From: a virus
Lineage: Duplodnaviria > Heunggongvirae > Uroviricota > Caudoviricetes
Direction: 5' to 3' (one strand)
Length of the DNA stretch: 20,642 nucleotides
Virus record (IMG/VR): IMGVR_UViG_2690316148_000002
Position 1 is the stretch's first letter. Every line of letters starts with the position of its first letter. Below the pieces are notes generated by a model. That model searched no databases and had not been told where the DNA came from. It worked only from the letters and a program-made list of their open reading frames with translations. Below are positions 970 to 20,642 of the stretch, one piece after another. Made by a program: the position numbers and the translations under genes.

Positions 970-1029
970 GAGGTTGCCCTGTATTCAGTGTCGCTGATTT
1001 GTATTGTCTGAAGTTGTTTTTACGTTAAG

Positions 1030-1340: not shown

Positions 1341-1357
1341 TGTCCGTGGAATGAACA

Positions 1358-1877
1358 ATGGAAGTCAACAAAAAGCAGCTGGCTGACATTTTCGGTGCGA
1401 GTATCCGTACCATTCAGAACTGGCAGGAACAGGGAATGCCCGTTCTGCGAGGCGGTGGCAAGGGTAATGAGGTGCTTTATGACTCTGCCGCCGTTATAAG
1501 ATGGTATGCCGAAAGGGATGCTGAAATTGAGAACGAAAAGCTGCGCCGGGAAGTTGAAGAACTGCGGCAGGCCAGCGAGACAGATCTCCAGCCAGGGACT
1601 ATTGAGTACGAACGCCATCGACTTACGCGTGCGCAGGCCGACGCACAGGAGCTGAAAAATGCCAGAGACTCCGCTGAAGTGGTGGAAACCGCATTCTGTA
1701 CTTTCGTGCTGTCGCGGATCGCAGGTGAAATTGCCAGTATTCTCGACGGGATCCCCCTGTCGGTGCAGCGGCGTTTTCCGGAACTGGAAAACCGACATGT
1801 TGATTTCCTGAAACGGGATATCATCAAAGCCATGAACAAAGCAGCCGCGCTGGATGAACTGATACCGGGGTTGCTGA

Positions 1878-1903
<26 letters not shown>
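1358..1903 (+). CDS. nu1: Terminase small subunit
   Basis: 181-aa ORF MEVNKKQLADIFGASIRTIQNWQEQGMPVLRGGGKGNEVLYDSAAVIRWY..., which I recognise as lambda gpNu1 with its N-terminal winged-HTH region; same length as lambda Nu1; sits directly after cosB. Confidence 0.95.
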
Positions 1904-5584
<3,681 letters not shown>

Positions 5585-5604
<20 letters not shown>

Positions 5605-5878
5605 TCTCCCGCATATTGCCAGCATGGCTTTTAATGAGCCGCTGATGCTTGAACCCGCCTATGCGCGGGTTTTCTTTTGTGCGCTTGCAGGCCAGCTTGG
5701 GATCAGCTGCCTGACGGATGCAGTATCCGGCGACAGCCTGACTGCCGGAGAGGCACCCGCGGCGCTGGCGTTATCCGGTGATGATGACGGACCACGACAG
5801 GCCCGCAGTTATCAGGTAATGAACGGCATCGCCGTGCTGCCGGTGTCCGGCACGCTGGTCAGCCGTACTCGGGGATGA
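5585..5878 (+). pseudogene. C: N-terminal fragment of the head protease/scaffold gene C, interrupted by a frame break
   Basis: A GTG at 5585-5587 begins VTAELRNLPHIASMAFNEPLMLEP..., matching the lambda gpC N-terminus as I recall it. The frame ends at TGA 5876-5878 after ...VSRTRG, where lambda C reads on. Confidence 0.7.
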
Positions 5879-6885
5879 CCGGTTACAACGGCATTATCGC
5901 CCGTCTGCAACAGGCTGCCAGCGACCCGATGGTGGACGGCATTCTGCTCGATATGGACACACCGGGCGGAATGGTGGCGGGAGCATTTGACTGCGCTGAC
6001 ATCATCGCCCGTGTGCGTGACATAAAGCCGGTATGGGCGCTGGCCAATGACATGAACTGCAGCGCAGGTCAGCTGCTTGCCAGTGCCGCCTCCCGGCGTC
6101 TGGTCACGCAGACCGCCCGGACAGGCTCCATCGGCGTCATGATGGCTCACAGTAATTACGGCGCTGCACTGGAGAAACAGGGCGTGGAAATCACGCTGAT
6201 TTACAGCGGCAGCCATAAGGTGGATGGCAACCCCTACAGCCATCTACCGGATGATGTCCGGGAAACATTGCAGTCCCGGATGGATGCAACCCGCCGGATG
6301 TTTGCACAGAAGGTGTCGGCATATACCGGCCTGTCCGTGCAGGCTGTGCTGGATACCGAGGCTGCAGTGTACAGCGGTCAGGAGGCCATTGATGCCGGAC
6401 TGGCTGATGAACTTGTTAACAGTACCGATGCGATCACCGTCATGCGTGATGCACTGGATGCACGTAAATCCCGTCTCTCAGGAGGGCGAATGACCAAAGA
6501 GACTCAATCAACAACTGTTTCAGCCACTGCTTCGCAGGCTGACGTTACTGGCGTGGTGCAAGCGACGGAGGGCGAGAACGCCAGCGCGGCGCAGCCGGAC
6601 GTGAACGCGCAGATCACCGCAGCGGTTGCGGCAGAAAACAGTCGCATTATGGGGATCCTCAACTGTGAGGAGGCTCACGGACGCGAAGAACAGGCACGCG
6701 TGCTGGCCGAAACCCCCGGTATGACCGTGGAAACGGCCCGCCGTATTCTGGCCGCAGCACCACAGAGTGCACAGACGCGCAGTGACACTGCGCTGGATCG
6801 TCTGATGCAGGGGGCACCGGCACCGCTGGCTGCAGGTAACCCGGCATCTGATGCCGTTAACGATTTGCTGAACACACCAGTGTAA
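5875..6885 (+). CDS. C: C-terminal portion of gene C (S49-type prohead protease region plus scaffold-like tail), in a different frame from the N-terminal fragment
   Basis: 336-aa ORF MTGYNGIIARLQQAASDPMVDGILLDMDTPGG... ending ...AVNDLLNTPV like lambda gpC. Its ATG at 5875-5877 overlaps the stop of the upstream fragment (ATGA). The C region is 19 nt shorter than in lambda by coordinate arithmetic. Confidence 0.75.
   Translation: MTGYNGIIARLQQAASDPMVDGILLDMDTPGGMVAGAFDCADIIARVRDIKPVWALANDMNCSAGQLLASAASRRLVTQTARTGSIGVMMAHSNYGAALEKQGVEITLIYSGSHKVDGNPYSHLPDDVRETLQSRMDATRRMFAQKVSAYTGLSVQAVLDTEAAVYSGQEAIDAGLADELVNSTDAITVMRDALDARKSRLSGGRMTKETQSTTVSATASQADVTGVVQATEGENASAAQPDVNAQITAAVAAENSRIMGILNCEEAHGREEQARVLAETPGMTVETARRILAAAPQSAQTRSDTALDRLMQGAPAPLAAGNPASDAVNDLLNTPV
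6280..6885 (+). CDS. nu3: Scaffolding protein Nu3 (nested in-frame within the 3' part of C)
   Basis: Internal ATG at 6280 in the C frame (MDATRRMFAQKV...), giving a 201-aa product that shares the C stop, as in lambda Nu3. Confidence 0.7.
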   Translation: MDATRRMFAQKVSAYTGLSVQAVLDTEAAVYSGQEAIDAGLADELVNSTDAITVMRDALDARKSRLSGGRMTKETQSTTVSATASQADVTGVVQATEGENASAAQPDVNAQITAAVAAENSRIMGILNCEEAHGREEQARVLAETPGMTVETARRILAAAPQSAQTRSDTALDRLMQGAPAPLAAGNPASDAVNDLLNTPV

Positions 6886-6894
6886 GGGATGTTT

Positions 6895-7227
6895 ATGACG
6901 AGCAAAGAAACCTTTACCCATTACCAGCCGCTGGGCAATAGTGACCCGGCTCATACCGCAACCGCGCCCGGCGGATTGAGTGCGAAAGCGCCTGCAATGA
7001 CCCCGCTGATGCTGGACACCTCCACCCGTAAGCTGGTTGCGTGGGATGGCACCACCGACGGTGCTGCCGTTGGCATTCTTGCGGTTGCTGCTGACCAGAC
7101 CAGCACCACACTGACGTTCTACAAGTCCGGCACGTTCCGTTATGAGGATGTGCTCTGGCCGGAGGCTGCCAGCGACGAGACGAAAAAACGGACCGCGTTT
7201 GCCGGAACGGCAATCAGCATCGTTTAA
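6895..7227 (+). CDS. D: Head decoration protein D
   Basis: [43 protein letters not shown]... matches lambda gpD (110 aa) as I recall it. The ORF track starts 2 codons earlier (MFMTSKE...); I take the lambda-equivalent start. Confidence 0.9.
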
Positions 7228-7248
7228 CTTTACCCTTCATCACTAAAG

Positions 7249-7269
7249 GCCGCCTGTGCGGCTTTTTTT
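7249..7269 (+). terminator. Terminator-like hairpin plus T-run in the D-E intergenic region
   Basis: GCCGC (7249-7253), loop CTGT, GCGGC (7258-7262), then TTTTTTT (7263-7269). Function not established. Confidence 0.35.
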
Positions 7270-7282
7270 ACGGGATTTTTTT

Positions 7283-8308
7283 ATGTCGATGTACACAACC
7301 GCCCAGCTGCTGGCGGCAAATGAGCAGAAATTTAAGTTTGATCCGCTGTTTCTGCGTCTCTTTTTCCGTGAGAGCTATCCCTTCACTACGGAGAAAGTCT
7401 ATCTCTCACAAATTCCGGGACTGGTAAACATGGCGCTGTACGTTTCGCCGATTGTTTCCGGTGAGGTTATCCGTTCCCGTGGCGGCTCCACCTCTGAATT
7501 TACGCCGGGATATGTCAAACCCAAGCATGAGGTGAATCCGCAGATGACCCTGCGTCGCCTGCCGGATGAAGATCCGCAGAATCTGGCGGACCCGGCTTAC
7601 CGCCGCCGTCGCATCATCATGCAGAACATGCGTGACGAAGAGCTGGCCATTGCTCAGGTCGAAGAGATGCAGGCAGTTTCTGCCGTGCTCAAGGGCAAAT
7701 ACACCATGACCGGTGAAGCCTTCGATCCGGTTGAGGTGGATATGGGCCGCAGTGCGGCGAACAACATCACACAGTCCGGCGTCACGGAGTGGAGCAAGCG
7801 TGACAAGTCCACGTATGACCCGACCGACGATATCGAAGCCTACGCGCTGAACGCCAGCGGTGTGGTGAATATCATCGTGTTTGACCCGAAAGGCTGGGCG
7901 CTGTTCCGTTCCTTCAAAGCCGTCAAGGAGAAGCTGGATACCCGTCGCGGCTCTCATTCCGAGCTGGAGACAGCGGTAAAAGACCTGGGCAAAGCGGTGT
8001 CCTATAAGGGAATGTATGGCGATGTGGCCATCGTCGTGTATTCCGGACAGTACGTGGAAAACGGCGTCAAAAAGAACTTCCTGCCGGACAACACGATGGT
8101 GCTGGGGAACACTCAGGCTCGCGGTCTGCGCACCTATGGCTGCATTCAGGATGCGGACGCACAGCGCGAAGGCATTAACGCCTCTGCCCGTTACCCGAAA
8201 AACTGGGTGACCACCGGCGATCCGGCGCGTGAGTTCACCATGATTCAGTCAGCACCGCTGATGCTGCTGGCTGATCCTGATGAGTTCGTGTCCGTTCAAC
8301 TGGCGTAA
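7283..8308 (+). CDS. E: Major capsid protein E
   Basis: MSMYTTAQLLAANEQKFKFDPLFLRLFFRESYPFTTEKVYLSQIPGLVNMALYVSPIVSGEV...; 341 aa, lambda gpE. The ORF track's upstream extension (MRLFLRDFF) is rejected in favour of the lambda-equivalent ATG. Confidence 0.95.
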   Translation: MSMYTTAQLLAANEQKFKFDPLFLRLFFRESYPFTTEKVYLSQIPGLVNMALYVSPIVSGEVIRSRGGSTSEFTPGYVKPKHEVNPQMTLRRLPDEDPQNLADPAYRRRRIIMQNMRDEELAIAQVEEMQAVSAVLKGKYTMTGEAFDPVEVDMGRSAANNITQSGVTEWSKRDKSTYDPTDDIEAYALNASGVVNIIVFDPKGWALFRSFKAVKEKLDTRRGSHSELETAVKDLGKAVSYKGMYGDVAIVVYSGQYVENGVKKNFLPDNTMVLGNTQARGLRTYGCIQDADAQREGINASARYPKNWVTTGDPAREFTMIQSAPLMLLADPDEFVSVQLA

Positions 8309-8310
8309 TC

Positions 8311-8331
8311 ATGGCCCTTCGGGGCCATTTT
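8311..8331 (+). terminator. Stem-loop with UUCG tetraloop followed by a T-run, immediately after the E stop
   Basis: ATGGCCC (8311-8317), loop TTCG, GGGCCAT (8322-8328), followed by TTT. Could act as an attenuator or mRNA stabiliser after the highly expressed capsid gene. Confidence 0.35.
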
Positions 8332-8349
8332 CTCTCTGTGGAGGAGTTC

Positions 8350-8748
8350 ATGACGAAAGATGAACTGATTGCCCGTCTTCAGGAGCTGGGTGAGCAATTG
8401 AACCGCGATGTCAGTTTGACGGGAACGAAAGAAGAACTGGCGCTTCGTGTGGCAGAGCTGGAAGAAGAGCTTGATGACACGGATGAAACTGCCGGTCAGG
8501 ACACCCCTCTCAGCCGGGAAAATGTGCTGACCGGGCATGAAAATGAGGTGGTATCAGCGCAGCCGGATACCGTGATTCAGGATACGGCTGAACTGGTCAC
8601 GGTCGTGGCACTGGTGACGCTGCATACTGATGCACTTCACGCCACGCGGGATAAACCTGTGGCATTTGTGCTGCCGGGAACGGCGTTTCGTGTCTCTGCC
8701 GGTGTGGCAGCCGAAATGACAGAGCGCGGCCTGGCCAGAATGCAATAA
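8350..8748 (+). CDS. FI: DNA packaging / head assembly protein FI
   Basis: MTKDELIARLQELGEQLNRDVSLTGTKEELALRVAELEEELDDTDE...; 132 aa, lambda gpFI. Confidence 0.9.
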   Translation: MTKDELIARLQELGEQLNRDVSLTGTKEELALRVAELEEELDDTDETAGQDTPLSRENVLTGHENEVVSAQPDTVIQDTAELVTVVALVTLHTDALHATRDKPVAFVLPGTAFRVSAGVAAEMTERGLARMQ

Positions 8749-8759
8749 CGGGAGGCGCT

Positions 8760-9113
8760 GTGGCTGATTTCGATAACCTGTTCGATGCTGCCATTGCCCG
8801 CGCCGATGAAACGATACGCGGGTACATGGGAACGTCAGCCACCATGACATCCGGTGAGCAGTCAGGTGCGGTGATACGTGGTGTTTTTGATGACCCTGAA
8901 AATATCAGCTATGCCGGACAGGGCGTGCGCGTTGAAGGCTCCAGCCCGTCCCTGTTTGTCCGGACTGATGAGGTGCGGCAGCTGCGGCGTGGAGACACGC
9001 TGACCATCGGTGAGGAAAATTTCTGGGTAGATCGGGTTTCGCCGGATGATGGCGGAAGTTGTCATCTCTGGCTTGGACGGGGCGTACCGCCTGCCGTTAA
9101 CCGTCGCCGCTGA
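8760..9113 (+). CDS. FII: Head-tail connector (head completion) protein FII
   Basis: 117-aa ORF starting with GTG at 8760 (MADFDNLFDAAIARADETIRGYMG...); lambda gpFII size and position. Confidence 0.9.
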   Translation: MADFDNLFDAAIARADETIRGYMGTSATMTSGEQSGAVIRGVFDDPENISYAGQGVRVEGSSPSLFVRTDEVRQLRRGDTLTIGEENFWVDRVSPDDGGSCHLWLGRGVPPAVNRRR

Positions 9114-9124
9114 AAGGGGGATGT

Positions 9125-9703
9125 ATGGCCATAAAAGGTCTTGAGCAGGCCGTTGAAAACCTCAGCCGTATCAGCAAAACGGCGGTGCCCGGTGCCGCCG
9201 CAATGGCCATTAACCGCGTTGCTTCATCCGCGATATCGCAGTCTGCGTCACAGGTTGCCCGTGAGACAAAGGTACGCCGGAAACTGGTAAAGGAAAGGGC
9301 CAGGCTGAAAAGGGCCACGGTCAAAAATCCGCAGGCCAGAATCAAAGTTAACCGGGGGGATTTGCCCGTAATCAAGCTGGGTAATGCGCGGGTTGTCCTG
9401 TCCCGCCGCAGGCGTCATAAAAAGGGGCAGCGTTCATCCCTGAAAGGTGGCGGCAGCGTGCTTGTGGTGGGTAACCGTCGTATTCCCGGCGCGTTTATTC
9501 AGCAACTGAAAAACGGCCGGTGGCATGTTATGCAGCGTGTGGCCGGGAAAAACCGTTACCCCATTGATGTGGTGAAAATCCCGATGGCGGTGCCGCTGAC
9601 CACGGCGTTTAAACAGAATATTGAACGGATACGGCGTGAACGTCTTCCGAAAGAGCTGGGCTATGCGCTGCAGCATCAACTGAGAATGGTAATAAAGCGA
9701 TGA
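9125..9703 (+). CDS. Z: Tail completion protein Z
   Basis: 192-aa ORF, same length and position as lambda gpZ; overlaps the U start. Confidence 0.9.
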   Translation: MAIKGLEQAVENLSRISKTAVPGAAAMAINRVASSAISQSASQVARETKVRRKLVKERARLKRATVKNPQARIKVNRGDLPVIKLGNARVVLSRRRRHKKGQRSSLKGGGSVLVVGNRRIPGAFIQQLKNGRWHVMQRVAGKNRYPIDVVKIPMAVPLTTAFKQNIERIRRERLPKELGYALQHQLRMVIKR

Positions 9704-10095
9704 AACATACTGAACTCCGTGCAGCCGTACTGGATGCACTGGAGAAGCATGACACCGGGGCGACGCTTTTTGATGGTCGCCCCGCTGTTTTTGATGAGGA
9801 AGATTTTCCGGCAATTGCCGTTTATCTCACCGGCGCTGAATACACGGGCGAAGAGCTGGACAGCGATACCTGGCAGGCGGAGCTGCATATTGAAGTTTTC
9901 CTGCCTGCTCAGGTGCCGGATTCAGAGCTGGATTCGTGGATGGAGTCCCGGATTTATCCGGTGATGAGCGATATCCCGGCACTGTCAGATTTGATCACCA
10001 GTATGGTGGCCAGCGGCTATGACTACCGGCGCGACGATGATGCGGGCCTGTGGAGTTCAGCCGATCTGACTTATGTCATTATCTATGAAATGTGA
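9700..10095 (+). CDS. U: Tail tube terminator protein U
   Basis: 131-aa [55 protein letters not shown]...; lambda gpU. Confidence 0.9.
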
Positions 10096-10102
10096 GGACG
10101 CT

Positions 10103-10843
10103 ATGCCTGTACCAAATCCTACAATGCCGGTGAAAGGTGCCGGGACCACCCTGTGGGTTTATAAGGGGAGCGGTGACCCTTATGCGAACCCGCTTTCAGA
10201 CGTTGACTGGTCGCGTCTGGCAAAAGTTAAAGACCTGACGCCCGGCGAACTGACCGCTGAGTCCTATGACGACAGCTATCTCGATGATGAAGATGCAGAC
10301 TGGACTGCGACCGGGCAGGGGCAGAAATCTGCCGGAGATACCAGCTTCACGCTGGCGTGGATGCCCGGAGAGCAGGGGCAGCAGGCGCTGCTGGCGTGGT
10401 TTAATGAAGGTGATACCCGTGCCTATAAAATCCGCTTCCCGAACGGCACGGTCGATGTGTTCCGTGGCTGGGTCAGCAGTATCGGTAAGGCGGTGACGGC
10501 GAAGGAGGTGATTACCCGCACGGTGAAGGTCACCAATGTGGGACGTCCGTCGATGGCAGAAGATCGCAGCACGGTGACGGCGACGACCGGCATGACGGTG
10601 ACACCCGCCAGTGCTTCCGTAGTGAAAGGGCAGAGCACCACGCTGACCGTGGCATTCCAGCCGGATGGCGCAACCGACAAGAGCTTCCGTGCGGTGTCTG
10701 CGGATAAAACAAAAGCCACCGTGTCGGTCAGTGGTATGACCATCACCGTGAAAGGTGTTGCTGCAGGCAAGGTCAACATTCCGGTCGTATCTGGTAATGG
10801 TGAGTTTGCTGCGGTTGCAGAAATCAACGTCACCGCCAGTTAA
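10103..10843 (+). CDS. V: Major tail tube protein V (with C-terminal Ig-like domain)
   Basis: [50 protein letters not shown]...; 246 aa, lambda gpV. The ORF track's earlier start (10073) is rejected. Confidence 0.93.
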
Positions 10844-10858
10844 TCCGGAGAGTCAGCG

Positions 10859-11281
10859 ATGTTCCTGAAAACCGAATCATTTGAACATAACGGTGTGACC
10901 GTCACGCTTTCTGAACTGTCAGCCCTGCAGCGTATTGAGCATCTCGACCTGATGAAACGGCAGGCAGAACAGGCGGAGTCAGACAGCAACCGGAAGTTTA
11001 CTGTGGAAGACGCCATCAGAACCGGCGCTTTTGTGGTTGCGATGTCCCTGTGGCATAACCATCCGAAGAAGACGCAGATGCCGTCCATGAATGAAGCCGT
11101 TAAACAGATTGAGCAGGAAGTGCTTACCACCTGGCCCACAGAGGCAATTTCTCATGCTGAAAACGTGGTGTACCGGCTGTCCGGTATGTATGAGTTTGTG
11201 GTGAATGATGCTCCTGAACAGGCAGAGGACGCCGGGCCTGCAGAGCCTGTTTCTGCGGGAAAGTGTTCGACGGTGAGCTGA
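10859..11281 (+). CDS. G: Tail assembly chaperone G
   Basis: 140-aa ORF MFLKTESFEHNGVTVTLSELSALQRIEHLDLMKRQAEQ...; lambda gpG size and position. Confidence 0.9.
   Translation: MFLKTESFEHNGVTVTLSELSALQRIEHLDLMKRQAEQAESDSNRKFTVEDAIRTGAFVVAMSLWHNHPKKTQMPSMNEAVKQIEQEVLTTWPTEAISHAENVVYRLSGMYEFVVNDAPEQAEDAGPAEPVSAGKCSTVS
11257..11263 (+). promoter_or_regulatory. Programmed -1 ribosomal frameshift slippery heptamer G GGA AAG (G to G-T fusion)
   Basis: GGGAAAG at 11257-11263 with GGA AAG in the G frame (codon starts 11258 and 11261), just before the G stop. The -1 frame is open through 11697 (the T ORF). This is the conserved lambda G/GT arrangement. Confidence 0.85.
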
Positions 11282-11697
11282 GTTTTGCCCTGAAACTGGC
11301 GCGTGAGATGGGGCGACCCGACTGGCGCGCCATGCTTGCCGGGATGTCATCCACGGAGTATGCCGACTGGCACCGCTTTTACAGTACCCATTATTTTCAT
11401 GATGTTCTGCTGGATATGCACTTTTCCGGGCTGACGTACACCGTGCTCAGCCTGTTTTTCAGCGATCCGGAGATGCATCCGCTGGATTTCAGTCTGCTGA
11501 ACCGGCGCGAGGCTGACGAAGAGCCTGAAGATGATGTGCTGATGCAGAAAGCGGCAGGGCTTGCCGGAGGTGTCCGCTTTGGCCCGGACGGGAATGAAGT
11601 TATCCCCGCTTCCCCGGATGTGGCGGACATGACGGAGGATGACGTAATGCTGATGACAGTATCAGAAGGGATCGCAGGAGGAGTCCGGTATGGCTGA
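11263..11697 (+). CDS. T: T portion of the tail assembly chaperone G-T fusion (made by -1 frameshifting from G; full fusion spans 10859..11697)
   Basis: -1 frame ORF overlapping the 3' end of G and ending where H starts; same position as lambda T. Confidence 0.85.
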   Translation: MFDGELSFALKLAREMGRPDWRAMLAGMSSTEYADWHRFYSTHYFHDVLLDMHFSGLTYTVLSLFFSDPEMHPLDFSLLNRREADEEPEDDVLMQKAAGLAGGVRFGPDGNEVIPASPDVADMTEDDVMLMTVSEGIAGGVRYG

Positions 11698-14251
11698 ACC
11701 GGTAGGCGATCTGGTCGTTGATTTGAGTCTGGATGCGGCCAGATTTGACGAGCAGATGGCCAGAGTCAGGCGTCATTTTTCCGGTACGGAAAGTGATGCG
11801 AAAAAAACAGCGGCAGTCGTTGAACAGTCGCTGAGCCGACAGGCGCTGGCTGCACAGAAAGCGGGGATTTCCGTCGGGCAGTATAAAGCCGCCATGCGTA
11901 TGCTGCCTGCACAGTTCACCGACGTGGCCACGCAGCTTGCAGGGGGGCAGAATCCCTGGCTGATCCTGCTGCAACAGGGTGGTCAGGTTAAGGACTCCTT
12001 CGGCGGGATGATCCCCATGTTCAGGGGGCTTGCCGGCGCGATCACCCTGCCGATGGTGGGGGCCACCTCGCTGGCGGTGGCGACCGGTGCGCTGGCGTAT
12101 GCCTGGTATCAGGGCAACTCAACCCTGTCCGATTTCAACAAAACGCTGGTCCTTTCCGGTAATCAGGCGGGACTGACGGCAGATCGTATGCTGGTCCTGT
12201 CCAGAGCCGGGCAGGCGGCAGGGCTGACGTTTAACCAGACCAGCGAGTCACTCAGCGCACTGGTTAAGGCGGGGGTAAGCGGTGAGGCTCAGATTGCGTC
12301 CATCAGCCAGAGTGTGGCGCGTTTCTCCTCTGCATCCGGCGTGGAGGTGGACAAGGTCGCTGAAGCCTTCGGGAAGCTGACCACAGACCCGACGTCGGGG
12401 CTGACGGCGATGGCACGCCAGTTCCATAACGTGACGGCGGAGCAGATTGCGTATGTTGCTCAGTTGCAGCGTTCCGGCGATGAAGCCGGGGCATTGCAGG
12501 CGGCGAACGAGGCCGCAACGAAAGGGTTTGATGACCAGACCCGCCGCCTGAAAGAGAACATGGGCACGCTGGAGACCTGGGCAGACAGGACTGCACGTGC
12601 ATTCAAATCCATGTGGGATGCGGTGCTGGATATTGGTCGTCCTGATACCGCGCAGGAGATGCTGATTAAGGCAGAGGCTGCGTTTAAGAAAGCAGACGAC
12701 ATCTGGAATCTGCGCAAGGATGATTATTTCGTTAACGATGAAGCACGGGCGCGTTACTGGGATGATCGTGAAAAAAAACGCCTGGAGCGGGATGCAGCCC
12801 AAAAGAGGGTAGATCAACAGCGTCAACAGGACAAAAATGCGCAGCAGCAGAGCGATACCGAAGCGTCACGGCTGAAATATACCGAAGAGGCGCAGAAGGC
12901 TTACGAACGGCTGCAGACGCCGCTGGAGAAATATACCGCCCGTCAGGAAGAACTGAACAAGGCACTGAAAGACGGAAAAATCCTGCAGGCAGATTACAAC
13001 ACGCTGATGGCGGCGGCGAAAAAGGATTATGAAGCGACGCTGAAAAAGCCGAAACAGTCCGGCGTGAAGGTGTATGCGGGCGATCGTCAGGAAGACAGTG
13101 CTCATGCGGCCCTGCTGACGCTTCAGGCAGAACTCCGGACGCTGGAGAAGCATGCCGGAGCGAATGAGAAAATCAGCCAGCAGCGCCGGGATTTGTGGAA
13201 GGCAGAAAGTCAGTTCGCGGTACTGGAGGAGGCGGCACAACGTCGCCAGCTGTCCGCACAGGAGAAATCCCTGCTGGCGCATAAAGACGAGACGCTGGAG
13301 TACAAACGCCAGCTGGCTGCACTTGGTGACAAGGTTACGTATCAGGAGCACCTGAATGCGCTGGCGCAGCAGGCGGATAAATTCGCACAGCAGCAACGGG
13401 CAAAACGGGCAGCCATTGATGCGAAAAACCGGGGGCTGACTGACCGGCAGGCAGCGCGGGAAGCCACGGAACAGCGCCTGAAGGAACAGTATGGCGATAA
13501 TCCTCTGGCGCTGAATAACGTCATGTCAGAGCAGAAAAAGACCTGGGCGGCTGAAGACCAGCTTCGCGGGAGCTGGATGGCAGGCCTGAAGTCCGGCTGG
13601 AGTGAGTGGGAAGAGAGCGCCACGGACAGTATGTCACAGGTTAAAAGTGCAGCCACGCAGACCTTTGATGGTATTGCACAGAATATGGCGGCGATGCTGA
13701 CCGGCAGTGAACAGAACTGGCGCAGCTTCACCCGCTCCGTGCTGTCCATGATGACAGAAATTCTGCTTAAGCAGGCAATGGTGGGGATTGTCGGGAGTAT
13801 CGGCAGCGCCATTGGCGGGGCTGTTGGTGGCGGCGCATCCGCGTCAGGTGGTACAGCCATTCAGGCCGCTGCGGCGAAATTCCATTTTGCAACCGGGGGA
13901 TTTACGGGAACCGGCGGCAAATATGAGCCAGCGGGGATTGTTCACCGTGGTGAATTTGTCTTCACGAAGGAGGCAACCAGCCGGATTGGCGTGGGGAATC
14001 TCTACCGGCTGATGCGCGGCTATGCGGAAGGTGGTTATGTGGGCGGTGCCGGAAGTCCGGCGCAGATGCGGCGGGCTGAAGGCATTAATTTTAATCAGAA
14101 CAATCACGTGGTGATTCAGAACGACGGTACGAATGGTCTGCCAGGTCCACAGATGATGAAGGCCGTGTATGACATGGCCCGCAAGGGTGCCCGTGATGAA
14201 ATTCAGACACAGATGCGTGATGGTGGCCTGTTCTCCGGAGGTGGACGATGA
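11690..14251 (+). CDS. H: Tail tape measure protein H
   Basis: 853-aa ORF, the same length as lambda gpH; a long predicted alpha-helical, Ala/Gln/Lys/Glu-rich central region and a Gly-rich C-terminus. Confidence 0.95.
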   Translation: MAEPVGDLVVDLSLDAARFDEQMARVRRHFSGTESDAKKTAAVVEQSLSRQALAAQKAGISVGQYKAAMRMLPAQFTDVATQLAGGQNPWLILLQQGGQVKDSFGGMIPMFRGLAGAITLPMVGATSLAVATGALAYAWYQGNSTLSDFNKTLVLSGNQAGLTADRMLVLSRAGQAAGLTFNQTSESLSALVKAGVSGEAQIASISQSVARFSSASGVEVDKVAEAFGKLTTDPTSGLTAMARQFHNVTAEQIAYVAQLQRSGDEAGALQAANEAATKGFDDQTRRLKENMGTLETWADRTARAFKSMWDAVLDIGRPDTAQEMLIKAEAAFKKADDIWNLRKDDYFVNDEARARYWDDREKKRLERDAAQKRVDQQRQQDKNAQQQSDTEASRLKYTEEAQKAYERLQTPLEKYTARQEELNKALKDGKILQADYNTLMAAAKKDYEATLKKPKQSGVKVYAGDRQEDSAHAALLTLQAELRTLEKHAGANEKISQQRRDLWKAESQFAVLEEAAQRRQLSAQEKSLLAHKDETLEYKRQLAALGDKVTYQEHLNALAQQADKFAQQQRAKRAAIDAKNRGLTDRQAAREATEQRLKEQYGDNPLALNNVMSEQKKTWAAEDQLRGSWMAGLKSGWSEWEESATDSMSQVKSAATQTFDGIAQNMAAMLTGSEQNWRSFTRSVLSMMTEILLKQAMVGIVGSIGSAIGGAVGGGASASGGTAIQAAAAKFHFATGGFTGTGGKYEPAGIVHRGEFVFTKEATSRIGVGNLYRLMRGYAEGGYVGGAGSPAQMRRAEGINFNQNNHVVIQNDGTNGLPGPQMMKAVYDMARKGARDEIQTQMRDGGLFSGGGR

Positions 14252-14577
14252 AAACCTTCCGCTGGAAAGTGAAACCCGGTATGGATGTGGCTTCGGCCCC
14301 TTCTGTAAGAAAGGTGCGCTTTGGTGATGGCTATTCCCAGCGAGCGCCTGCCGGGCTGAATGCCAACCTGAAAACGTACAGCGTGACGCTTTCTGTCCCC
14401 CGTGAGGAGGCCATGGTACTGGAGTCGTTTCTGGAAGAGCACGGGGGCTGGAAAGCCTTTCTGTGGACGCCGCCTTATGAGTGGCGGCAGATAAAGGTGA
14501 CCTGCGCAAAATGGTCGTCGCGGGTCAGTATGCTGCGTGTTGAGTTCAGCGCAGAGTTTGAACAGGTGGTGAACTGA
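14248..14577 (+). CDS. M: Tail tip protein M
   Basis: 109-aa ORF MKTFRWKVKPGMDVASAPSVRKVRFGDGYSQRAPAGLNANLKTYSVTL...; lambda gpM; ATGA overlap with H. Confidence 0.93.
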   Translation: MKTFRWKVKPGMDVASAPSVRKVRFGDGYSQRAPAGLNANLKTYSVTLSVPREEAMVLESFLEEHGGWKAFLWTPPYEWRQIKVTCAKWSSRVSMLRVEFSAEFEQVVN

Positions 14578-15275
14578 TGCAGGATATCCGGCAGGAAACA
14601 CTGAATGAATGCACCCGTGCGGAGCAGTCGGCCAGCGTGGTGCTCTGGGAAATCGATCTGACAGAGGTCGGTGGTGAACGTTATTTTTTCTGTAATGAGC
14701 AGAACGAAAAAGGTGAGCCGGTCACCTGGCAGGGGCGACAGTATCAGCCGTATCCCATTCAGGGGAGTGGTTTTGAACTGAATGGCAAAGGCACCAGTAC
14801 GCGCCCCACGCTGATGGTTTCTAACCTGTACGGTATGGTCACCGGGATGGCGGAAGATCTACAGAGTCTGGTCGGCGGAACGGTGGTCCGGCGTAAGGTT
14901 TACGCCCGTTTTCTGGATGCGGTGAACTTCGTCAACGGAAACAGTGACGCCGATCCGGAGCAGGAGGTGATCAGCCGCTGGCGCATTGAGCAGTGCAGCG
15001 AACTGAGCGCGGTGAGTGCCTCTTTTGTACTGTCCACGCCGACGGAAACAGATGGCGCTGTTTTTCCGGGACGTATCATGCTGGCCAACACCTGCACCTG
15101 GACCTATCGCGGCGATGAGTGCGGTTATCACGGTCCGGCGGTCGCGGATGAATATGACCAGCCAACGTCCGACATCACGAAGGATAAATGCAGCAAATGC
15201 CTGAGTGGCTGTAAGTTTCGCAATAACGTCGGCAACTTTGGCGGCTTCCTTTCCATTAACAAACTTTCGCAGTAA
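14577..15275 (+). CDS. L: Tail tip protein L
   Basis: 232-aa ORF MQDIRQETLNECTRAEQSASVVLWEIDLTEVGGERYFFCNEQNEKGEPVTWQGRQYQPY... with the C-terminal Cys cluster (CSKCLSGCKF); lambda gpL. Confidence 0.95.
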   Translation: MQDIRQETLNECTRAEQSASVVLWEIDLTEVGGERYFFCNEQNEKGEPVTWQGRQYQPYPIQGSGFELNGKGTSTRPTLMVSNLYGMVTGMAEDLQSLVGGTVVRRKVYARFLDAVNFVNGNSDADPEQEVISRWRIEQCSELSAVSASFVLSTPTETDGAVFPGRIMLANTCTWTYRGDECGYHGPAVADEYDQPTSDITKDKCSKCLSGCKFRNNVGNFGGFLSINKLSQ

Positions 15276-15280
15276 ATCCC

Positions 15281-16024
15281 ATGACAGAGACAGAATCAGC
15301 GATTCTGGCGCACGCCCGGCGATGTGCTCCAGCGGAGTCGTGCGGCTTCGTGGTAAGAACGCCGGAGGGGGAAAGATATTTCCCCTGCGTGAATATCTCC
15401 GGTGAGCCGGAGGCGTATTTCCGTATGTCGCCGGAAGACTGGCTGCAGGCAGAGATGCAGGGTGAGATTGTGGCACTGGTCCACAGCCACCCCGGTGGTC
15501 TGCCCTGGCTGAGTGAGGCCGACCGGCGGCTGCAGGTGCAGAGTGATTTGCCGTGGTGGCTGGTCTGCCGGGGGGCGATTCACAAGTTCCGCTGTGTGCC
15601 ACATCTTACCGGGCGGCGCTTTGAGCACGGGGTGACGGACTGTTACACGCTGTTCCGGGATGCTTACCATCTGGCGGGGATTGAGATGCCGGATTTTCAT
15701 CGTGAGGATGACTGGTGGCGTCACGGTCAGAATCTCTATCTGGATAATCTGGAGGCCACAGGGCTGTATCAGGTGCCGTTGTCAGCGGCGCAGCCGGGCG
15801 ATGTGCTGCTGTGCTGTTTTGGTTCATCGGTGCCGAATCATGCCGCCATTTACTGTGGTGACGGCGAGCTGCTGCACCATATTCCTGAACAACTGAGCAA
15901 ACGAGAGAGGTATACCGACAAATGGCAGCGACGCACACACTCCCTCTGGCGTCACCGGGCATGGCACGCATCTGCCTTTACGGGGATTTGCAACGATTTG
16001 GCCGCCGCATCGACCTTCGTGTGA
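15281..16024 (+). CDS. K: Tail tip assembly protein K (JAB/MPN metalloprotease-like domain plus NlpC/P60-like domain)
   Basis: 247-aa ORF. The N-terminal half carries a JAMM-type motif HSHPGGLPWLSEAD (H-x-H-x7-S-x2-D); the C-terminal half has a Cys (VTDCYTLF) and His (VPNHAAIY) spacing typical of NlpC/P60. The C-terminal 199 aa correspond to lambda K as conventionally annotated. Confidence 0.88.
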   Translation: MTETESAILAHARRCAPAESCGFVVRTPEGERYFPCVNISGEPEAYFRMSPEDWLQAEMQGEIVALVHSHPGGLPWLSEADRRLQVQSDLPWWLVCRGAIHKFRCVPHLTGRRFEHGVTDCYTLFRDAYHLAGIEMPDFHREDDWWRHGQNLYLDNLEATGLYQVPLSAAQPGDVLLCCFGSSVPNHAAIYCGDGELLHHIPEQLSKRERYTDKWQRRTHSLWRHRAWHASAFTGICNDLAAASTFV

Positions 16025-16593
16025 AAACGGGTGCCGAAGCCATCCGGGCGATGGCCACACAGCTCCCTGCGTTTCGTCAGAAGCTGAGCGACGGCTGGTA
16101 TCAGGTGCGTATTGCCGGGCAGGATGTTAGCACGTCCGGATTAACGGCGCAGTTACATGAGGCTCTGCCTGACGGCGCTGTGATTCATATTGTTCCCAGA
16201 GTCGCCGGGGCCAAGTCAGGTGGTGTATTCCAGATTGTCCTGGGAGCAGCCGCCATTGCCGGATCATTCTTTACCGCCGGAGCCACCCTTGCAGCATGGG
16301 GGGCTGCCATTGGTGCCGGTGGTATGACCGGCATTCTGTTTTCTCTCGGTGCCAGTATGGTGCTCGGCGGTGTGGCTCAGATGCTGGCACCGAAAGCCAG
16401 AACTCCCCGCACACAGACAACGGATAACGGTAAGCAGAACACCTATTTCTCCTCACTGGATAACATGGTTGCCCAGGGCAATGTTATGCCTGTTCTGTAT
16501 GGTGAAATGCGCGTGGGGTCACGTGTGGTATCTCAGGAGATCAGCACGGCAGACGAAGGGGACGGTGGTCAGGTTGTGGTGATTGGTCGCTGA
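15922..16593 (+). CDS. I: Tail assembly protein I
   Basis: 223-aa ORF MAATHTLPLASPGMARICLYGDLQRFGRRIDLRVKTGAEAIRAMATQLPAFRQKLSDGWYQVRIAG...; lambda gpI; overlaps the 3' end of K as in lambda. Confidence 0.93.
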   Translation: MAATHTLPLASPGMARICLYGDLQRFGRRIDLRVKTGAEAIRAMATQLPAFRQKLSDGWYQVRIAGQDVSTSGLTAQLHEALPDGAVIHIVPRVAGAKSGGVFQIVLGAAAIAGSFFTAGATLAAWGAAIGAGGMTGILFSLGASMVLGGVAQMLAPKARTPRTQTTDNGKQNTYFSSLDNMVAQGNVMPVLYGEMRVGSRVVSQEISTADEGDGGQVVVIGR

Positions 16594-16653
16594 TGCAAAA
16601 TGTTTTATGTGAAATCGCCTCCGGGCGGTTTTATCGTTTATGGAGCATGACGA

Positions 16654-16979
16654 ATGGGTAAAGGCAGCAGTAAGGGGCATACCCCGCGCGAAGCGAAGGA
16701 CAACCTGAAGTCCACGCAGCTGCTGAGTGTGATCGATGCCATCAGCGAAGGGCCGGTTGACGGTCCGGTGGATGGATTAAAAAGCGTGCTGCTGAACAGT
16801 ACGCCGGTGCTGGACAGTGAGGGGAATACCAACATCTCCGGCGTCACGGTGGTGTTCCGGGCAGGTGAGCAGGAGCAGTCACCGCCGGAGGGATTTGAAT
16901 CCTCCGGCTCCGAGACGGTGCTGGGTACGGAAGTGAAATATGACACGCCGATCACCCGGACCATCACGTCGGCAAACAT
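16654..16979 (+). pseudogene. J: Truncated 5' fragment of central tail fibre / tip attachment gene J (first copy), ending at the ambiguous base 16980
   Basis: [54 protein letters not shown]... is the lambda gpJ N-terminus. After ...TITSAN the sequence has a single n and then switches to K-internal sequence. Confidence 0.8.
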
Positions 16980-16980
16980 N

Positions 16981-17375
16981 GGGTGACGGACTGTTACACG
17001 CTGTTCCGGGATGCTTACCATCTGGCGGGGATTGAGATGCCGGATTTTCATCGCGGGGATGACTGGTGGCGTAACGGTCAGAATCTCTATCTTGACAATA
17101 TGGAGGTGACGGGTTTTTACCGTGTCGCACTGACAGAGGCACAGCCGGGCGATGTGCTGCTGTGCTGTTTTGGTTCATCGGTGCCGAATCATGCCGCCAT
17201 TTACTGTGGTGACGGCGAGCTGCTGCACCATATTCCTGAACAACTGAGCAAACGAGAGAGGTATACCGACAAATGGCAGCGACGCACACACTCCCTCTGG
17301 CGTCACCGGGCATGGCGCGCATCTGCCTTTACGGGGATTTACAACGATTTGGTCGCCGCATCGACCTTCGTGTGA
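16981..17375 (+). pseudogene. K: 3' fragment of a second, diverged K copy (NlpC/P60-like part only; no JAB domain, no start)
   Basis: Begins abruptly after the n at 16980 with VTDCYTLFRDAYHLAGIEMPDFHRGDDWWRNGQNLYLDNMEVTGFYRVALTEAQPGDV..., paralogous to K residues about 117-247 but with several substitutions. Confidence 0.75.
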
Positions 17376-17914
17376 AAACGGGGGCTGAAGCCATCCGGGC
17401 ACTGGCCACACAGCTCCCGGCGTTTCGTCAGAAACTGAGTGACGGCTGGTATCAGGTGCGCATTGCCGGGCGTGATGCAGGTGAAACCGAATTGTCTGCC
17501 CGTCTTAATGAGCCGCTGGCAAATGGTGCAGTGATCCACATAGTACCGCGTCTGGTGGGAGCTAAAAGTGGCGGTGTGTTTCAGGCGGTGCTGGGGGCGG
17601 CTGTTATGGCGGTTGCTATATGGATGCCGGGGGTAGGAATTATGGCGAGTAATCTGCTGTTTTCTCTCGGTGCCAGTATGACGCTTGGCGGTGTTGCACA
17701 GATGCTGGCACCGAAAGCCAGAACTCCCCGTACACAGACAACGGATAACGGTAAGCAGAACACGTATTTCTCGTCACTGGATAACATGGTTGCCCAGGGC
17801 AATGTTCTGCCCGTTCTGTACGGTGAAATGCGCGTGGGGTCACGTGTGGTTTCTCAGGAGATCAGCACGGCAGACGAAGGGGATGGTGGTCAGGTTGTGG
17901 TGATTGGTCGCTGA
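17273..17914 (+). CDS. I: Tail assembly protein I, second diverged copy with a replaced central segment
   Basis: 213-aa ORF; N- and C-termini nearly identical to the first I copy, but the central segment differs and is 10 aa shorter (...RDAGETELSARLNEPLANGAVIHIVPRLVGAKSGGVFQAVLGAAVMAVAIWMPGVGIMASNLLFSLG...). Confidence 0.85.
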   Translation: MAATHTLPLASPGMARICLYGDLQRFGRRIDLRVKTGAEAIRALATQLPAFRQKLSDGWYQVRIAGRDAGETELSARLNEPLANGAVIHIVPRLVGAKSGGVFQAVLGAAVMAVAIWMPGVGIMASNLLFSLGASMTLGGVAQMLAPKARTPRTQTTDNGKQNTYFSSLDNMVAQGNVLPVLYGEMRVGSRVVSQEISTADEGDGGQVVVIGR

Positions 17915-17932
17915 TGCAAAATGTTTTATGTG

Positions 17933-17956
17933 AAACCGCCTGCGGGCGGTTTTGTC
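17933..17956 (+). terminator. Hairpin plus T-rich tract in the I-J intergenic region
   Basis: AAACCGCC, loop TGCG, GGCGGTTT, followed by a T-rich tract. A weaker version sits at the equivalent place after the first I copy (about 16611-16635). Confidence 0.3.
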
Positions 17957-17974
17957 GTTTATGGAGCGTGAGGA

Positions 17975-20642
17975 ATGGGTAAAGGCAGCAGTAAGGGGCA
18001 TACCCCGCGCGAAGCGAAGGACAACCTGAAATCCACGCAGTTGCTGAGTGTGATTGATGCCATCAGCGAAGGGCCGGTTGACGGTCCGGTGGATGGATTA
18101 AAAAGCGTGCTGCTGAACGGTACGCCGGTCCTGGACAGCGAGGGGAAGACAAACTTTTCCGGTGTTACGGTGGTGTTCCGTGCAGGTGAGCAGGAGCAGA
18201 CACCGCCGGAGGGTTTTGAATCCTCCGGCTCCGAGACGGTGCTGGGTACGGAAGTGAAATATGACACGCCGATCACCCGGACCATCACGTCGGCAAACAT
18301 CGACCGTCTGCGCCTGACCTTCGGTGTGCAGGCACTGGTGGAAACCACCTCAAAGGGTGACCGGAATCCGTCGGAAGTCCGCCTGCTGGTTCAGATACAG
18401 CGTAACGGTGGCTGGGTGACGGAAAAAGACATCACCATTAAGGGCAAAACCACCTCGCAGTATCTGGCCTCGGTGGTGGTGGATAACCTGCCGCCGCGCC
18501 CGTTTAATATCCGGATGCGCAGGATGACACCGGACAGCACCACAGACCAGCTGCAGAACAAAACGCTCTGGTCGTCATACACCGAAATCATCGATGTGAA
18601 ACAGTGCTACCCGAACACGGCGCTGGTCGGCGTGCAGGTGGATTCAGAGCAGTTCGGTAACCAGCAGGTGAGTCGCAATTATCATCTTCGCGGGCGCATT
18701 CTGCAGGTGCCGTCGAACTATAATCCGCAGACGCGGCAATACAGCGGTATCTGGGACGGAACGTTAAAACCGGCATACAGCAACAACATGGCCTGGTGTC
18801 TGTGGGACATGCTCACTCATCCGCGCTACGGCATGGGGAAACGTCTTGGTGCGGCAGATGTGGACAAATGGGCGCTGTATGTCATCGGCCAGTACTGCGA
18901 CCAGTCAGTGACGGACGGATTTGGCGGCACGGAGCCGCGCATCACCTGTAACTCTTACCTGACCACACAGCGTAAGGCGTGGGATGTTCTCAGTGATTTC
19001 TGCTCGGCGATGCGCTGTATGCCGGTATGGAACGGACAGATGCTGACGTTCGTGCAGGACCGACCGTCGGATAAGGTGTGGACCTATAACCGCAGTAATG
19101 TGGTGATGCCGGACGATGGCGCGCCGTTCCGCTACAGCTTCAGCGCCCTGAAGGACCGCCATAATGCCGTTGAGGTGAACTGGATTGACCCAGATAACGG
19201 CTGGGAGACGGCGACAGAGCTTGTGGAGGATACGCAGGCCATTGCCCGTTACGGTCGTAATGTCACGAAGATGGATGCCTTTGGCTGTACCAGCCGGGGG
19301 CAGGCACACCGAGCCGGGCTGTGGCTGATTAAAACGGAACTGCTGGAAACGCAGACCGTGGACTTCAGCGTGGGCGCAGAAGGGCTTCGCCATGTACCGG
19401 GTGATGTCATTGAAATCTGCGATGATGATTATGCCGGTATCAGCACCGGTGGTCGCGTACTGGCGGTGAACAGCCAGACCCGGACGCTGACGCTCGACCG
19501 TGAAATCACGCTGCCGTCCTCCGGTACCACGCTGATAAGCCTGGTTGACGGAAGTGGCAATCCGGTCAGCGTGGAGGTCCAGTCCGTCACCGACGGCGTG
19601 AAGGTGAAAGTGAGCCGGGTTCCTGACGGCGTTGCAGAATACAGCGTGTGGGGGCTGAAGCTGCCGACGCTGCACCAGCGATTGTTCCGCTGCGTGAGTA
19701 TCCGTGAGAACGACGACGGCACGTATGCCATCACCGCCGTGCAGCATGTGCCGGAAAAAGAGGCCATCGTGGATAACGGGGCACACTTTGACGGTGACCG
19801 GCGCGGCACGGTGAATGGTGTCACGCCGCCAGCGGTGCAGCACCTGACTGCCGAAGTCACCGCAGACAGCGGGGAATATCAGGTGCTGGCGCGATGGGAC
19901 ACGCCGAAGGTGGTGAAGGGTGTGAGCTTCCTGCTTCGCCTGACCGTGGCAGCGGACGACGGCAGTGAGCGGCTGGTCAGCACAGCCAGGACGACGGAAA
20001 CCACATACCGCTTCAGGCAGCTGGCGCTGGGGAATTACAGTCTGACAGTCCGGGCGGTAAATGCCCGGGGGCAGCAGGGCGATCCGGCGTCGGTATCGTT
20101 CCGGATTGCGGCACCGGCAGCGCCTGTCACTATTGAACTGATACCGGGGTATTTTCAGATAACGGCGGTCCCGAAACTGGCTGTATATGACCCGACGGTG
20201 CAGTTTGAGTTCTGGTTTTCGGAAAAGCGGATTGCGGATATCAGGCAGGTTGAAACCAGCGCCCGCTATCTTGGCACGGCGCTGTACTGGATAGCCGCCA
20301 GTATCAATATCAAACCGGGCCATGATTATTATTTTTACGTTCGCAGTGTGAACACCGTTGGCAAATCGGCATTTGTGGAGGCCATCGGTCGGGTGAGCGA
20401 TGATGCAGAAGGTTATCTGAATTTTTATAAAGGGTTGATCAATAAAACGCATCTCGGCAAGGAGTTGTGGACGCAGATTGATAACGGTCAGCTTGCGCCG
20501 GACCTGACTGAAATCAGGACGTCCATTACGAATGTCAGCAATGAAATCACGCAAACCGTCAATAAAAAACTGGAAAATCAGAGTGCTGCAATCCAGCAGA
20601 TACAGAAAGTTCAGGTTGATACAAATAATAACCTGAACAGCA
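17975..20642 (+). CDS. J: Central tail fibre / host specificity protein J (5' 889 codons; runs off the end of the window)
   Basis: I translated the frame from ATG 17975 by hand and it stays open to the window end: [20 protein letters not shown]...[55 protein letters not shown]..., colinear with lambda gpJ. It is absent from the ORF track only because no stop is reached. Confidence 0.95.

Follow-up and report, generated by a model that had tools for sequence, protein, structure and literature searches.

The DNA analysed here (the window, 20,642 nucleotides, which is the entire draft record CXDF01000072.1 of assembly GCA_001253095.1) carries two head-to-tail copies of a segment comprising the 3' part of K, the whole of I and the 5' part of J, with a single ambiguous base between them. 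The question which this locus raises is whether a prophage really possesses a partial second set of tail-tip genes, or whether the repeat arose while the genome was being put together. A preliminary description offered two readings, a misjoin of two different lambdoid prophages by the assembler and a genuine old recombination joint. The first is supported, because the two sides match two different prophages, the contigs end in blocks shared by both, the record is scaffolded and the junction is absent elsewhere in what was searched; nothing favours the second. Judged from these comparisons, the tandem repeat is very probably a scaffolding artefact, overlapping contigs of two prophages having been misjoined.

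The repeat and its genes

The preliminary description had placed the two units correctly to the base (Table 1), and had also located the junction exactly, J switching to K-internal sequence at the single n. The copies are indeed non-identical. In BLASTN comparisons their flanks share 93-95% identity (93.3% between 15630-16120 and 16981-17471, and 94.9% between 16336-16979 and 17657-18300, E = 0 in both cases), whereas the centre of gene I (16121-16335 against 17472-17656) gave no BLASTN alignment between the units, and it is these different centres that explain the 30-nt difference in unit length. It was also rightly argued that copies from a recent duplication should be identical. A repeat search of the window found only these two long direct matches.

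Gene and domain identities were taken from Pfam matches above the curated cut-offs. The order M-L-K-I-J, together with the expected domains in K, I and J, identifies a module of the lambda type, and the J of the window has the FNIII, Ig and Phage-tail_3 domains of GpJ found in phage lambda. At the nucleotide level, phages 434 and lambda match the tail-tip region at about 95.8% identity. The phage records inspected differ from the window in having one K-I-J each, the J' and 'K2 fragments being peculiar to the window record; in fact, among the best phage matches listed, the 4924-nt query maps onto about 3603 nt, that is, onto a single K-I-J. As read, J' consists of 108 J residues, one ambiguous residue, Gly and a stop; it is annotated in the source record as a 110-aa gene and has no Pfam match.

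Table 1. Coordinates of the scaffold pieces, repeat units, shared blocks and tail-tip genes in the window
Feature	Position	Strand	Description
First scaffold piece	1-149		1-32, end of an IS element; 33-149, intergenic, upstream of the P1 packaging genes
Sized scaffold gap	150-454		305 N; counterpart in CP032523.1 of 238 bp, 38% GC
Contig A (prophage P1)	455-16979	+	More than 99.8% identity to P1 loci
K1	15281-16024	+	Pfam JAB and NlpC/P60
Unit 1	15630-16979	+	1350 nt; 3' part of K1, I1, 5' part of J; P1 alleles
I1	15922-16593	+	Pfam Lambda_tail_I
J' (apparent truncated J)	16654-16986	+	108 genuine codons, with ATN GGG TGA running over the join
Block identical in both units	16894-16979	+	86 nt; terminates contig A
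Single N	16980		Isolated ambiguous base, taken to mark a scaffold join whose estimated gap was zero or negative
Contig B (prophage remnant P2)	16981-20642	+	99.43% gap-free identity to P2 references
Unit 2	16981-18300	+	1320 nt; 3' part of K2, I2, 5' part of J2
Block identical to 15630-15702	16981-17053	+	73 nt; opens contig B
'K2 (apparent N-terminally truncated K)	16983-17375	+	Pfam NlpC/P60 half only, JAB absent
I2	17273-17914	+	Pfam Lambda_tail_I
J2	17975 to window end	+	Pfam GpJ domains

Two prophages on either side of the ambiguous base

Independent assemblies contain, for each side of the N, a collinear locus of ordinary structure with no duplication. Positions 1690-16979 show 99.98% identity over 15,290 nt to the locus L005, and 99.84% to two complete genomes, CP032523.1 and CP041511.1 (P1); in these three K-I-J is single and J runs on to 1164-1165 aa. 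P1 loci were recovered through the exact H protein, which is listed in 482 blocks of the collection (the exact I2 protein is listed in 363), and P1-type sequence continues right after the endpoint of contig A in 7 out of 7, with a full-length P1 J in six. The other side, positions 16981-20642, matches CP023645.1, CP019689.1 (S. sonnei 75/02) and CP022455.1 without gaps (P2), while its identity to the P1 J is just 93.6%. The P2 reference genomes have a full-length K behind an M-L region with only 88.8% identity to that of the window, and in complete S. sonnei genomes the P2 locus is an IS-flanked remnant in an IS-rich context.

The two prophages may reside in one cell. Of the 23 prophage regions of S. 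sonnei 75/02, one at 0.41 Mb is lambda-like and another, at 4.63 Mb, is the P2 locus (PMC5447701); co-residence is taken from this prophage table (PMC5447701, Table 3) together with drafts holding both. The terminase protein was also considered as a route to genomes with both P1 and P2, and was discarded as too widespread to be informative. In this respect the pair resembles other co-resident lambdoid prophages of mosaic structure, the tail genes of P1 and P2 being 89-95% identical with long identical blocks, which makes these blocks substrates for homologous exchange. Such exchange differs from what is seen here in that it yields hybrids of normal length, never a head-to-tail joint of a J 5' part with a K 3' part.

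Moreover, each contig carries alleles of the other prophage. Where contig B differs from the P2 references it has the P1 allele at 20 of the 21 sites, distributed over eight short patches, and two of these positions (17018 and 17027, inside its 73-nt block) show P1 alleles and not those of the P2 references. Reciprocally, contig A has the P2 allele at both of the two sites where it differs from P1 within P2-homologous DNA; unit 1 departs from the P1 of L005 at one position in 1350 (16761), again with the P2 allele. This two-way pattern fits consensus mixing between the contigs.

Layout of the record and ends of the contigs

Only two runs of non-ACGT characters interrupt the window, the 305-N gap and the N at 16980, the sole isolated ambiguous base in the 20,642 nt, which lies exactly between the two units; the copies are separated by a gap or ambiguity character in a record which is visibly scaffolded. 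The first piece has 100% identity to CP032523.1 (L023, 8191-8339), where an IS3-family transposase gene immediately precedes it; the locus L022, which is without the IS, matches just 33-149. When compared with its counterpart in CP032523.1, the length of the 305-N gap proves to be an estimate and not a copy of a reference. Contig A contains, in order, Nu1, A, W, B, C, D, E, FI, FII, Z, U, V, G, T, H, M, L, K1 and I1, followed by the first 326 nt of J, whilst contig B comprises K2 (its 3' 395 nt only), I2 and J2 (889 codons).

At the join, contig A ends in ...TCGGCAAACAT (J codon 108/109) before the N, and contig B begins with GGGTGACGGACTG... inside K, at the second base of a Gly codon; written around the ambiguous base x, the junction reads ...GGCAAACAT-x-GGGTGACGG. 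The end of contig A has no sequence in common with the start of contig B, and neither homology nor microhomology was found at the joint. Beyond ...GGCAAACAT the sequence goes on with T GACCGACTGCG in every P1 locus and with C GACCGTCTGCG in the P2 loci of complete genomes (L013-L016), so that contig A stops on the last base common to P1 and P2. Contig B, in turn, starts inside a block common to both, and thus both ends fall at repeat boundaries of the kind expected in an assembly graph. The end of contig A and position 18300 of contig B correspond to the same J coordinate. The derivation of one k-mer size from both contig ends was abandoned, since the shared stretches of 73 and 86 nt disagree, and with no single k the assembler model is only qualitative.

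By convention, a lone n is what SSPACE and ABySS put between contigs whose predicted overlap is not found. A published statement of this single-n rule for negative gaps was looked for in the literature and not found. Negative gap sizes for overlapping contigs are described for ALLPATHS-LG, and gaps inserted between overlapping contigs for SOAPdenovo2 (PMC5368935).

A scaffolding model of the repeat

The comparisons show the identity of each side, where the contigs end relative to the differences between P1 and P2, that the record is scaffolded and that the other assemblies searched lack the junction; the program responsible for the join and the read pairs behind it are what we infer here, and the steps would be as follows. 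The source is very probably a Shigella sonnei isolate, to judge from the best matches, with at least two lambdoid loci bearing homologous tail-tip modules: P1, a complete lambda-like prophage, and P2, an IS-flanked remnant with M-L-K-I-J-lom. A short-read assembler would have built contig A along P1, beginning at the packaging genes and passing K1 and I1 to enter J, where it halted at the P1/P2 fork, and contig B from the P2-type J leftwards via I2 into K2, halting in the block common with P1. The scaffolder would then have tied the end of contig A to the J part of contig B, the link possibly coming from the 3' part of P1's own J collapsed into contig B, from ambiguous mapping of pairs in the long identical stretches, or from a P1/P2 recombinant J in the strain. 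Placing the J of contig B directly after the end of J' would need an overlap of 1320 nt between the two contigs; since these stretches carry different alleles, which precluded merging, the contigs would have been placed one after the other with a single N as the smallest possible gap. Most likely, the real genome has one K-I-J set per prophage, and the J' and 130-aa 'K2 open reading frames would then not exist in it.

This class of error has precedents. The setting side by side of duplicated overlapping contigs through mate-pair links has been documented (Kelley & Salzberg 2010, PMC2864568), and the false duplications described there and by Ko et al. 2022 (PMC9516828) resemble the present one in that diverged adjacent copies are split by a gap character, each copy is joined to unique flank on one side only, and the copies cannot be merged on account of a divergence of several percent. 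The difference is that those cases concern diploid haplotypes, whereas the present copies are paralogous modules, one from each of two prophages of a haploid bacterium, with a gap of one N between them. As regards greedy scaffolding with read pairs, SSPACE and GapFiller are greedy and may produce false joins (Page et al. 2016, PMC5320598, describing a pipeline of Velvet, SSPACE and GapFiller), and the window record is of a similar kind, a bacterial draft assembled into scaffolds whose gap sizes are estimates. Among the public S. sonnei assemblies, 299 came from that pipeline (PMC5320598); any link of CXDF01000072.1 to it would be circumstantial.

Alternative explanations

The alternative which survives best, itself rather improbable, is that the duplication is artefactual and the link partly true. 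Homologous recombination between P1 and P2 within J, for instance by a prophage-mediated inversion, would have made a hybrid in which P2-like J sequence, from 18301 on, truly follows contig A; the misattached part would be confined to the opening 1320 nt of contig B (K2'-I2-J2 5'). The geometry of the join agrees with this, given the J coordinate shared by the end of contig A and position 18300. A gap-free contig, L021, is in fact a P1/P2 hybrid with a single switch in an identical K block of about 80 nt, although it may itself be a chimeric short-read contig. The patches of P1 alleles in the J of contig B imply that the J copies interact, in the cell or in the assembly; nevertheless, eight short patches with reciprocal P2 alleles in contig A resemble consensus mixing and not one crossover. 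In addition, none of the loci recovered through H leaves the P1 type past the endpoint of contig A, and all but one keep the P1 J at full length.

It is very unlikely that the join came from reference-guided ordering, or from plain concatenation of contigs, with both contigs overlapping on one reference K-I-J. Both are at least 93% identical to any lambdoid K-I-J and would thus overlap on a reference, but in that case the 305-N gap should have had the reference length, the 238 bp of the near-identical genome, or that of a fixed filler. This possibility alters only the tool at fault and not the conclusion.

A genuine strain-specific rearrangement, in which an illegitimate joint would connect codon 108/109 of the P1 J to codon 117 of the P2 K and the N would be an uncalled base, is extremely unlikely. 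Both sets of alleles are present in the source, prophage recombination does occur in the lineage or in its assemblies (the clean P1-to-P2 switch inside K in L021), and a lone N could in principle be a low-quality base within a continuous contig. Yet the only isolated N of the record falls exactly at the joint, in a record that has another scaffold gap; the joint shows no homology to have mediated it; and ends lying at a P1/P2 fork and in a shared block are those expected of an assembly graph and not of a random illegitimate crossover. Furthermore, the copies do not look derived from one another, each being nearly identical to a different pre-existing allele, P1 or P2, and their gene I centres failing to align.

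Searches for the junction elsewhere bear on the same reading. Among 5,426 complete E. coli genomes there was no collinear match; three records (H1, H2 and H3) covered at least 80% of the junction query. H2 and H3 were rejected as carriers, being non-collinear K-J fusion remnants with I deleted. H1, E. coli FY26, has an array of several K-I-J5' modules in a row in a 'complete' genome, which lends a genuine origin some plausibility; it was also rejected, since its breakpoints differ, and the array is unique among the 5,426 genomes. The exact pattern ATCACGTCGGCAAACATNGGGTGACGGACTGTTACACG had no match in viral contigs or in contigs of species-representative genomes, a weak search, as the N of the pattern may miss a literal N and the GTDB representatives probably do not include S. 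sonnei. The exact 130-aa 'K2 product, in turn, occurs in a single contig of the whole collection, the source record itself. The junction is interrupted by an N in the one record that has it and absent from the other assemblies searched, although many carry both prophages. Were the joint real, a second allelic K(3')-I-J(5') would be inserted in the tail-tip operon of one S. sonnei isolate, for which the chances are slight in the extreme; in that prophage K1-I1 would still work, J' and 'K2 would be non-functional remnants and I2-J2 would come as a further set, giving two different alleles of the tail-assembly gene I.

Lastly, a programmed variation cassette of an invertible or shufflon-like kind was discarded, as only lambda-type morphogenesis genes, and no recombinase gene, lie from Nu1 to J, and the repeat search, which showed only the two long direct matches, gave no flanking sites.

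Significance for S. sonnei prophage records

With a scaffolding misjoin as the preferred reading, the finding is an ordinary one, of value only as an annotation warning and for quality control. A second N-containing draft of the S. sonnei lineage, CWTP01000056.1, runs from P1 to the 5' part of K, through 250 N, and on into P2 from upstream of M, a chaining which produces an apparent M-L-K duplication. This recurrence of P1-to-P2 chaining may point to an error that is systematic among S. sonnei drafts built by scaffolding.

Read literally, the record adds two spurious pseudogene-like open reading frames, the 110-aa J and the 130-aa K fragments, and inflates the count of tail genes. Since the consensus of either contig includes a few alleles of the opposite prophage, SNP calls from this part of the draft cannot be trusted. 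More generally, the record fuses two prophages which have different neighbours in the complete genomes of the lineage, and prophage typing, pangenome gene counts and the inference of alleles of J, the host-range gene, would all be misled by it.

Structure of the repeat and of the record

The preliminary description had read 15630-18300 as a head-to-tail repeat of K(3')-I-J(5') with its junction at the single n, in non-identical copies differing in the centre of gene I. Self-BLAST and base-by-base alignment confirmed this reading as exact: both flanks of the units give direct matches (see table), and the N falls precisely on the boundary between unit 1 and unit 2. In the alignment, the first 73 and the last 86 bases are identical, a single identical run of 175 nt lies within the units, and no alignment is possible in the middle of gene I, where the 30-nt length difference between them arises. 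The source record annotates the antisense ORF within J as a gene, but it gave no Pfam hit, so the annotation is almost certainly spurious.

An exact-match look-up of the 130-aa K fragment gave a single contig from the whole collection, the window's own record CXDF01000072.1 (GCA_001253095.1; length 20,642). The locus that came with it matches the window without a difference from 6983 to the last base, and the window is therefore the entire draft scaffold. Window 1-149 and 455-2000 match the complete genome CP032523.1 at 100% and 99.9%, respectively, the two matches being separated there by 238 bp of intergenic DNA with 38% GC (8340-8577 of the locus L023). As the window holds 305 N at this place, gap sizes in the record must be estimates, this one being an over-estimate and not a fixed filler, which points to read-pair scaffolding. 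SSPACE and ABySS mark an overlap that they fail to resolve with one n, and a one-N gap would be the outcome expected from a gap estimate of zero or less. Moreover, the record begins at a repeat boundary, since window 1-32 is the end of an IS element; in CP032523.1 the matching stretch is immediately preceded by a gene for an IS3-family transposase, and loci without the IS match the window only from base 33.

Features of the window and of the loci compared (window genes read from ORFs and Pfam domains)
Feature	Position	Remarks
Nu1 to H, then M, L	left part of window	lambda morphogenesis genes; ORFs and Pfam
K1	after L	JAB and NlpC/P60 domains (Pfam)
I1	after K1	Lambda_tail_I (Pfam)
J' (J fragment)	after I1	108 codons; reads ATN GGG TGA across the join
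'K2 (K fragment)	after J'	NlpC/P60 half only
I2, then J2	J2 to window end	ORFs and Pfam
Antisense ORF	18905-20554, minus strand	549 aa, wholly within J
Non-ACGT runs (two)	150-454; 16980	305 N; single N
Units 1 and 2	15630-16979; 16981-18300
Contigs A and B	455-16979; 16981-20642	left and right of the single N
Direct match, first flank	15630-16120 vs 16981-17471	93.3% identity
Direct match, second flank	16336-16979 vs 17657-18300	94.9% identity
P1-allele sites in contig B	17018, 17027, 17207-17264, 18454-18483, 18577, 18724-18772, 19674-19682, 19843-19849, 20313-20314
L002 (NZ_CP104123.1)	4053688-4066123	degraded prophage; terminase fused to L fragment
NZ_CP159689.1		degraded prophage; terminase fused to L fragment
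FY26 (L001, NZ_CP101741.1)	4147814-4160579	array of K-I-J pieces
CWTP01000056.1 (L020)	8314-23647	draft with 1,062 N
AAUYMT010000069.1 (L021)	5839-21058	zero N; switch at locus positions 9599 to 9680

Two prophages on the two sides of the N

On the left, the collection lists 482 blocks with an exact copy of the tape-measure protein H (853 aa). In all 7 loci compared from these (2 from complete genomes), M, L, K, I and J come after H, with J of 1164-1165 aa, ending after 391 aa in locus L010, and none of the 7 carries a duplication. At the DNA level, window 1690-16979 shows 99.98% identity to L005, a locus of this lambda-like prophage (P1), and about 99.84% to CP032523.1 and CP041511.1; against the window's right part these loci reach only 93.3-93.7%. 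The best complete E. coli match of the left side is a STEC005 prophage adjoining appY-ompT (97.5% over 16.2 kb).

On the right, the exact I2 protein occurs in 363 blocks, and in the complete genomes CP023645.1, CP019689.1 and CP022455.1 it belongs to an IS-flanked remnant (P2) with the order M-L-K-I-J(1159 aa)-lom. Window 16981-20642 aligns with these three without gaps at 99.43%, while in the M-L-K 5' part their identity to the window is no more than 88.8%. The best complete E. coli match of this side is the ipaH-carrying prophage of VL46 (97.8%), whose head genes have no match to the window. Judged by these matches, each side of the N belongs to a different prophage, P1 on the left and P2 on the right, which supports the preliminary suggestion that an assembler had misjoined two lambdoid prophages.

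For Shigella sonnei 75/02 (CP019689), a published table lists 23 prophage regions, among them a lambda-like prophage at 0.41-0.46 Mb and, at 4.63-4.65 Mb, the region holding the P2 locus (PMC5447701); pp2 of this strain would correspond to P1. The P2 remnant is present twice in CP019689.1 (4621455-4651513), the copies being separated by 9.4 kb and surrounded by IS elements, which also lie between them, either through IS-mediated duplication or as an artefact of SSPACE and gap-closing assembly.

Contig ends and mixed alleles

After ...GGCAAACAT all P1 loci read on as T GACCGACTGCG, whereas the complete-genome P2 loci L013-L016 read on as C GACCGTCTGCG, as does the window at 18301; therefore, the left contig ends on the last base common to P1 and P2. 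The right contig starts 73 nt ahead of the point where it first departs from the copy in the left contig, inside a block common to P1 and P2 that extends 22 nt further upstream. Such end points are expected of contig ends, and a non-homologous biological crossover would have no reason to fall there. A single k-mer size could not be derived from both ends, as 73 and 86 nt disagree, and the argument is therefore qualitative only.

Of the 21 sites at which contig B departs from the P2 references, 20 have the P1 allele, grouped in 8 short patches from 17018 to 20314; the P2 allele stands at 418 other informative sites. Reciprocally, 3 sites separate contig A from its closest P1 match, and both of those in P2-homologous DNA (14675, 16761) carry the P2 allele. 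Isolated alleles swapped in both directions are the expected outcome when a short-read assembly merges near-identical paths. Repeated short gene conversions could also have left such patches, a less likely origin because other P2 copies lack them, including one in another N-containing draft. Under merging or gene conversion alike, the source seems to have contained J sequence of P1 type beyond 16979, and therefore the J of P1 probably continues past that point and does not really end there. The dominance of P2 alleles in a collapsed J consensus would be explained by two P2 copies.

The junction and related joins in other genomes

A 401-nt query across the junction was matched by halves in 4,441 of 5,426 complete E. 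coli genomes and was nominally covered in only 3 records. Two of these, L002 and NZ_CP159689.1, are real deletion remnants covering the query superficially: with I deleted, a shortened K abuts an interior segment of J, and the pieces of these K-J fusions are not collinear with the query. The third, FY26, has breakpoints other than the window's. Its run (K-I-J5', M-L-K-I-J5', K-I-J5', then 'K-I...J), in which the I alleles are of four kinds and several J and K pseudogenes are cut short, is unique among the 5,426 genomes, since in the others the query falls on one K-I-J. The run resembles a comparable fault in a "complete" assembly, perhaps an assembly-graph path resolved wrongly; the alternative is a real, very odd array. 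Phage records, lambda and 434 included, hold a single K-I-J.

In the draft CWTP01000056.1, of the same lineage, P1 runs to the 5' part of K and is followed by 250 N and by P2 from upstream of M, giving an apparent M-L-K duplication; three further gaps of about 270 N each lie inside K, I and J. This is the same class of misjoin as in the window, with other breakpoints. AAUYMT010000069.1 is a P1/P2 hybrid with a single switch in mid-K, in an identical block of about 80 nt, where 299 consecutive P1-informative sites give way to 255 P2-informative ones, and is either a true recombinant (e.g. by prophage-mediated inversion) or a chimeric contig.

Proposed origin of the repeat

Contig B would have a P2 backbone into which the J of P1 was probably partly collapsed, so that read pairs could have linked the end of contig A to the J part of B. 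Placing this part directly after the end of J' in A would require an overlap of 1320 nt between non-identical sequences, and, with no mergeable overlap, the scaffolder would have set the two contigs one after the other with one N between them. The join is of the same type as the "duplicated overlapping contig", a false duplication described for haplotypes (PMC2864568), and false joins are a known fault of the greedy scaffolders applied to large bacterial collections (PMC5320598).

A genuine joint peculiar to this strain is very improbable, and the exact junction pattern had no match in the viral or species-representative contig collections. The isolate may instead carry a real P1/P2 recombinant J, in which case the link from A to J2 would be true and only the first 1320 nt of B misplaced. 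We hold with high confidence that the tandem K-I-J repeat is not a real genomic feature. SNPs in the mixed-allele region of the draft are unreliable, and even if a recombinant J were true, the K-I-J duplication would remain an artefact.
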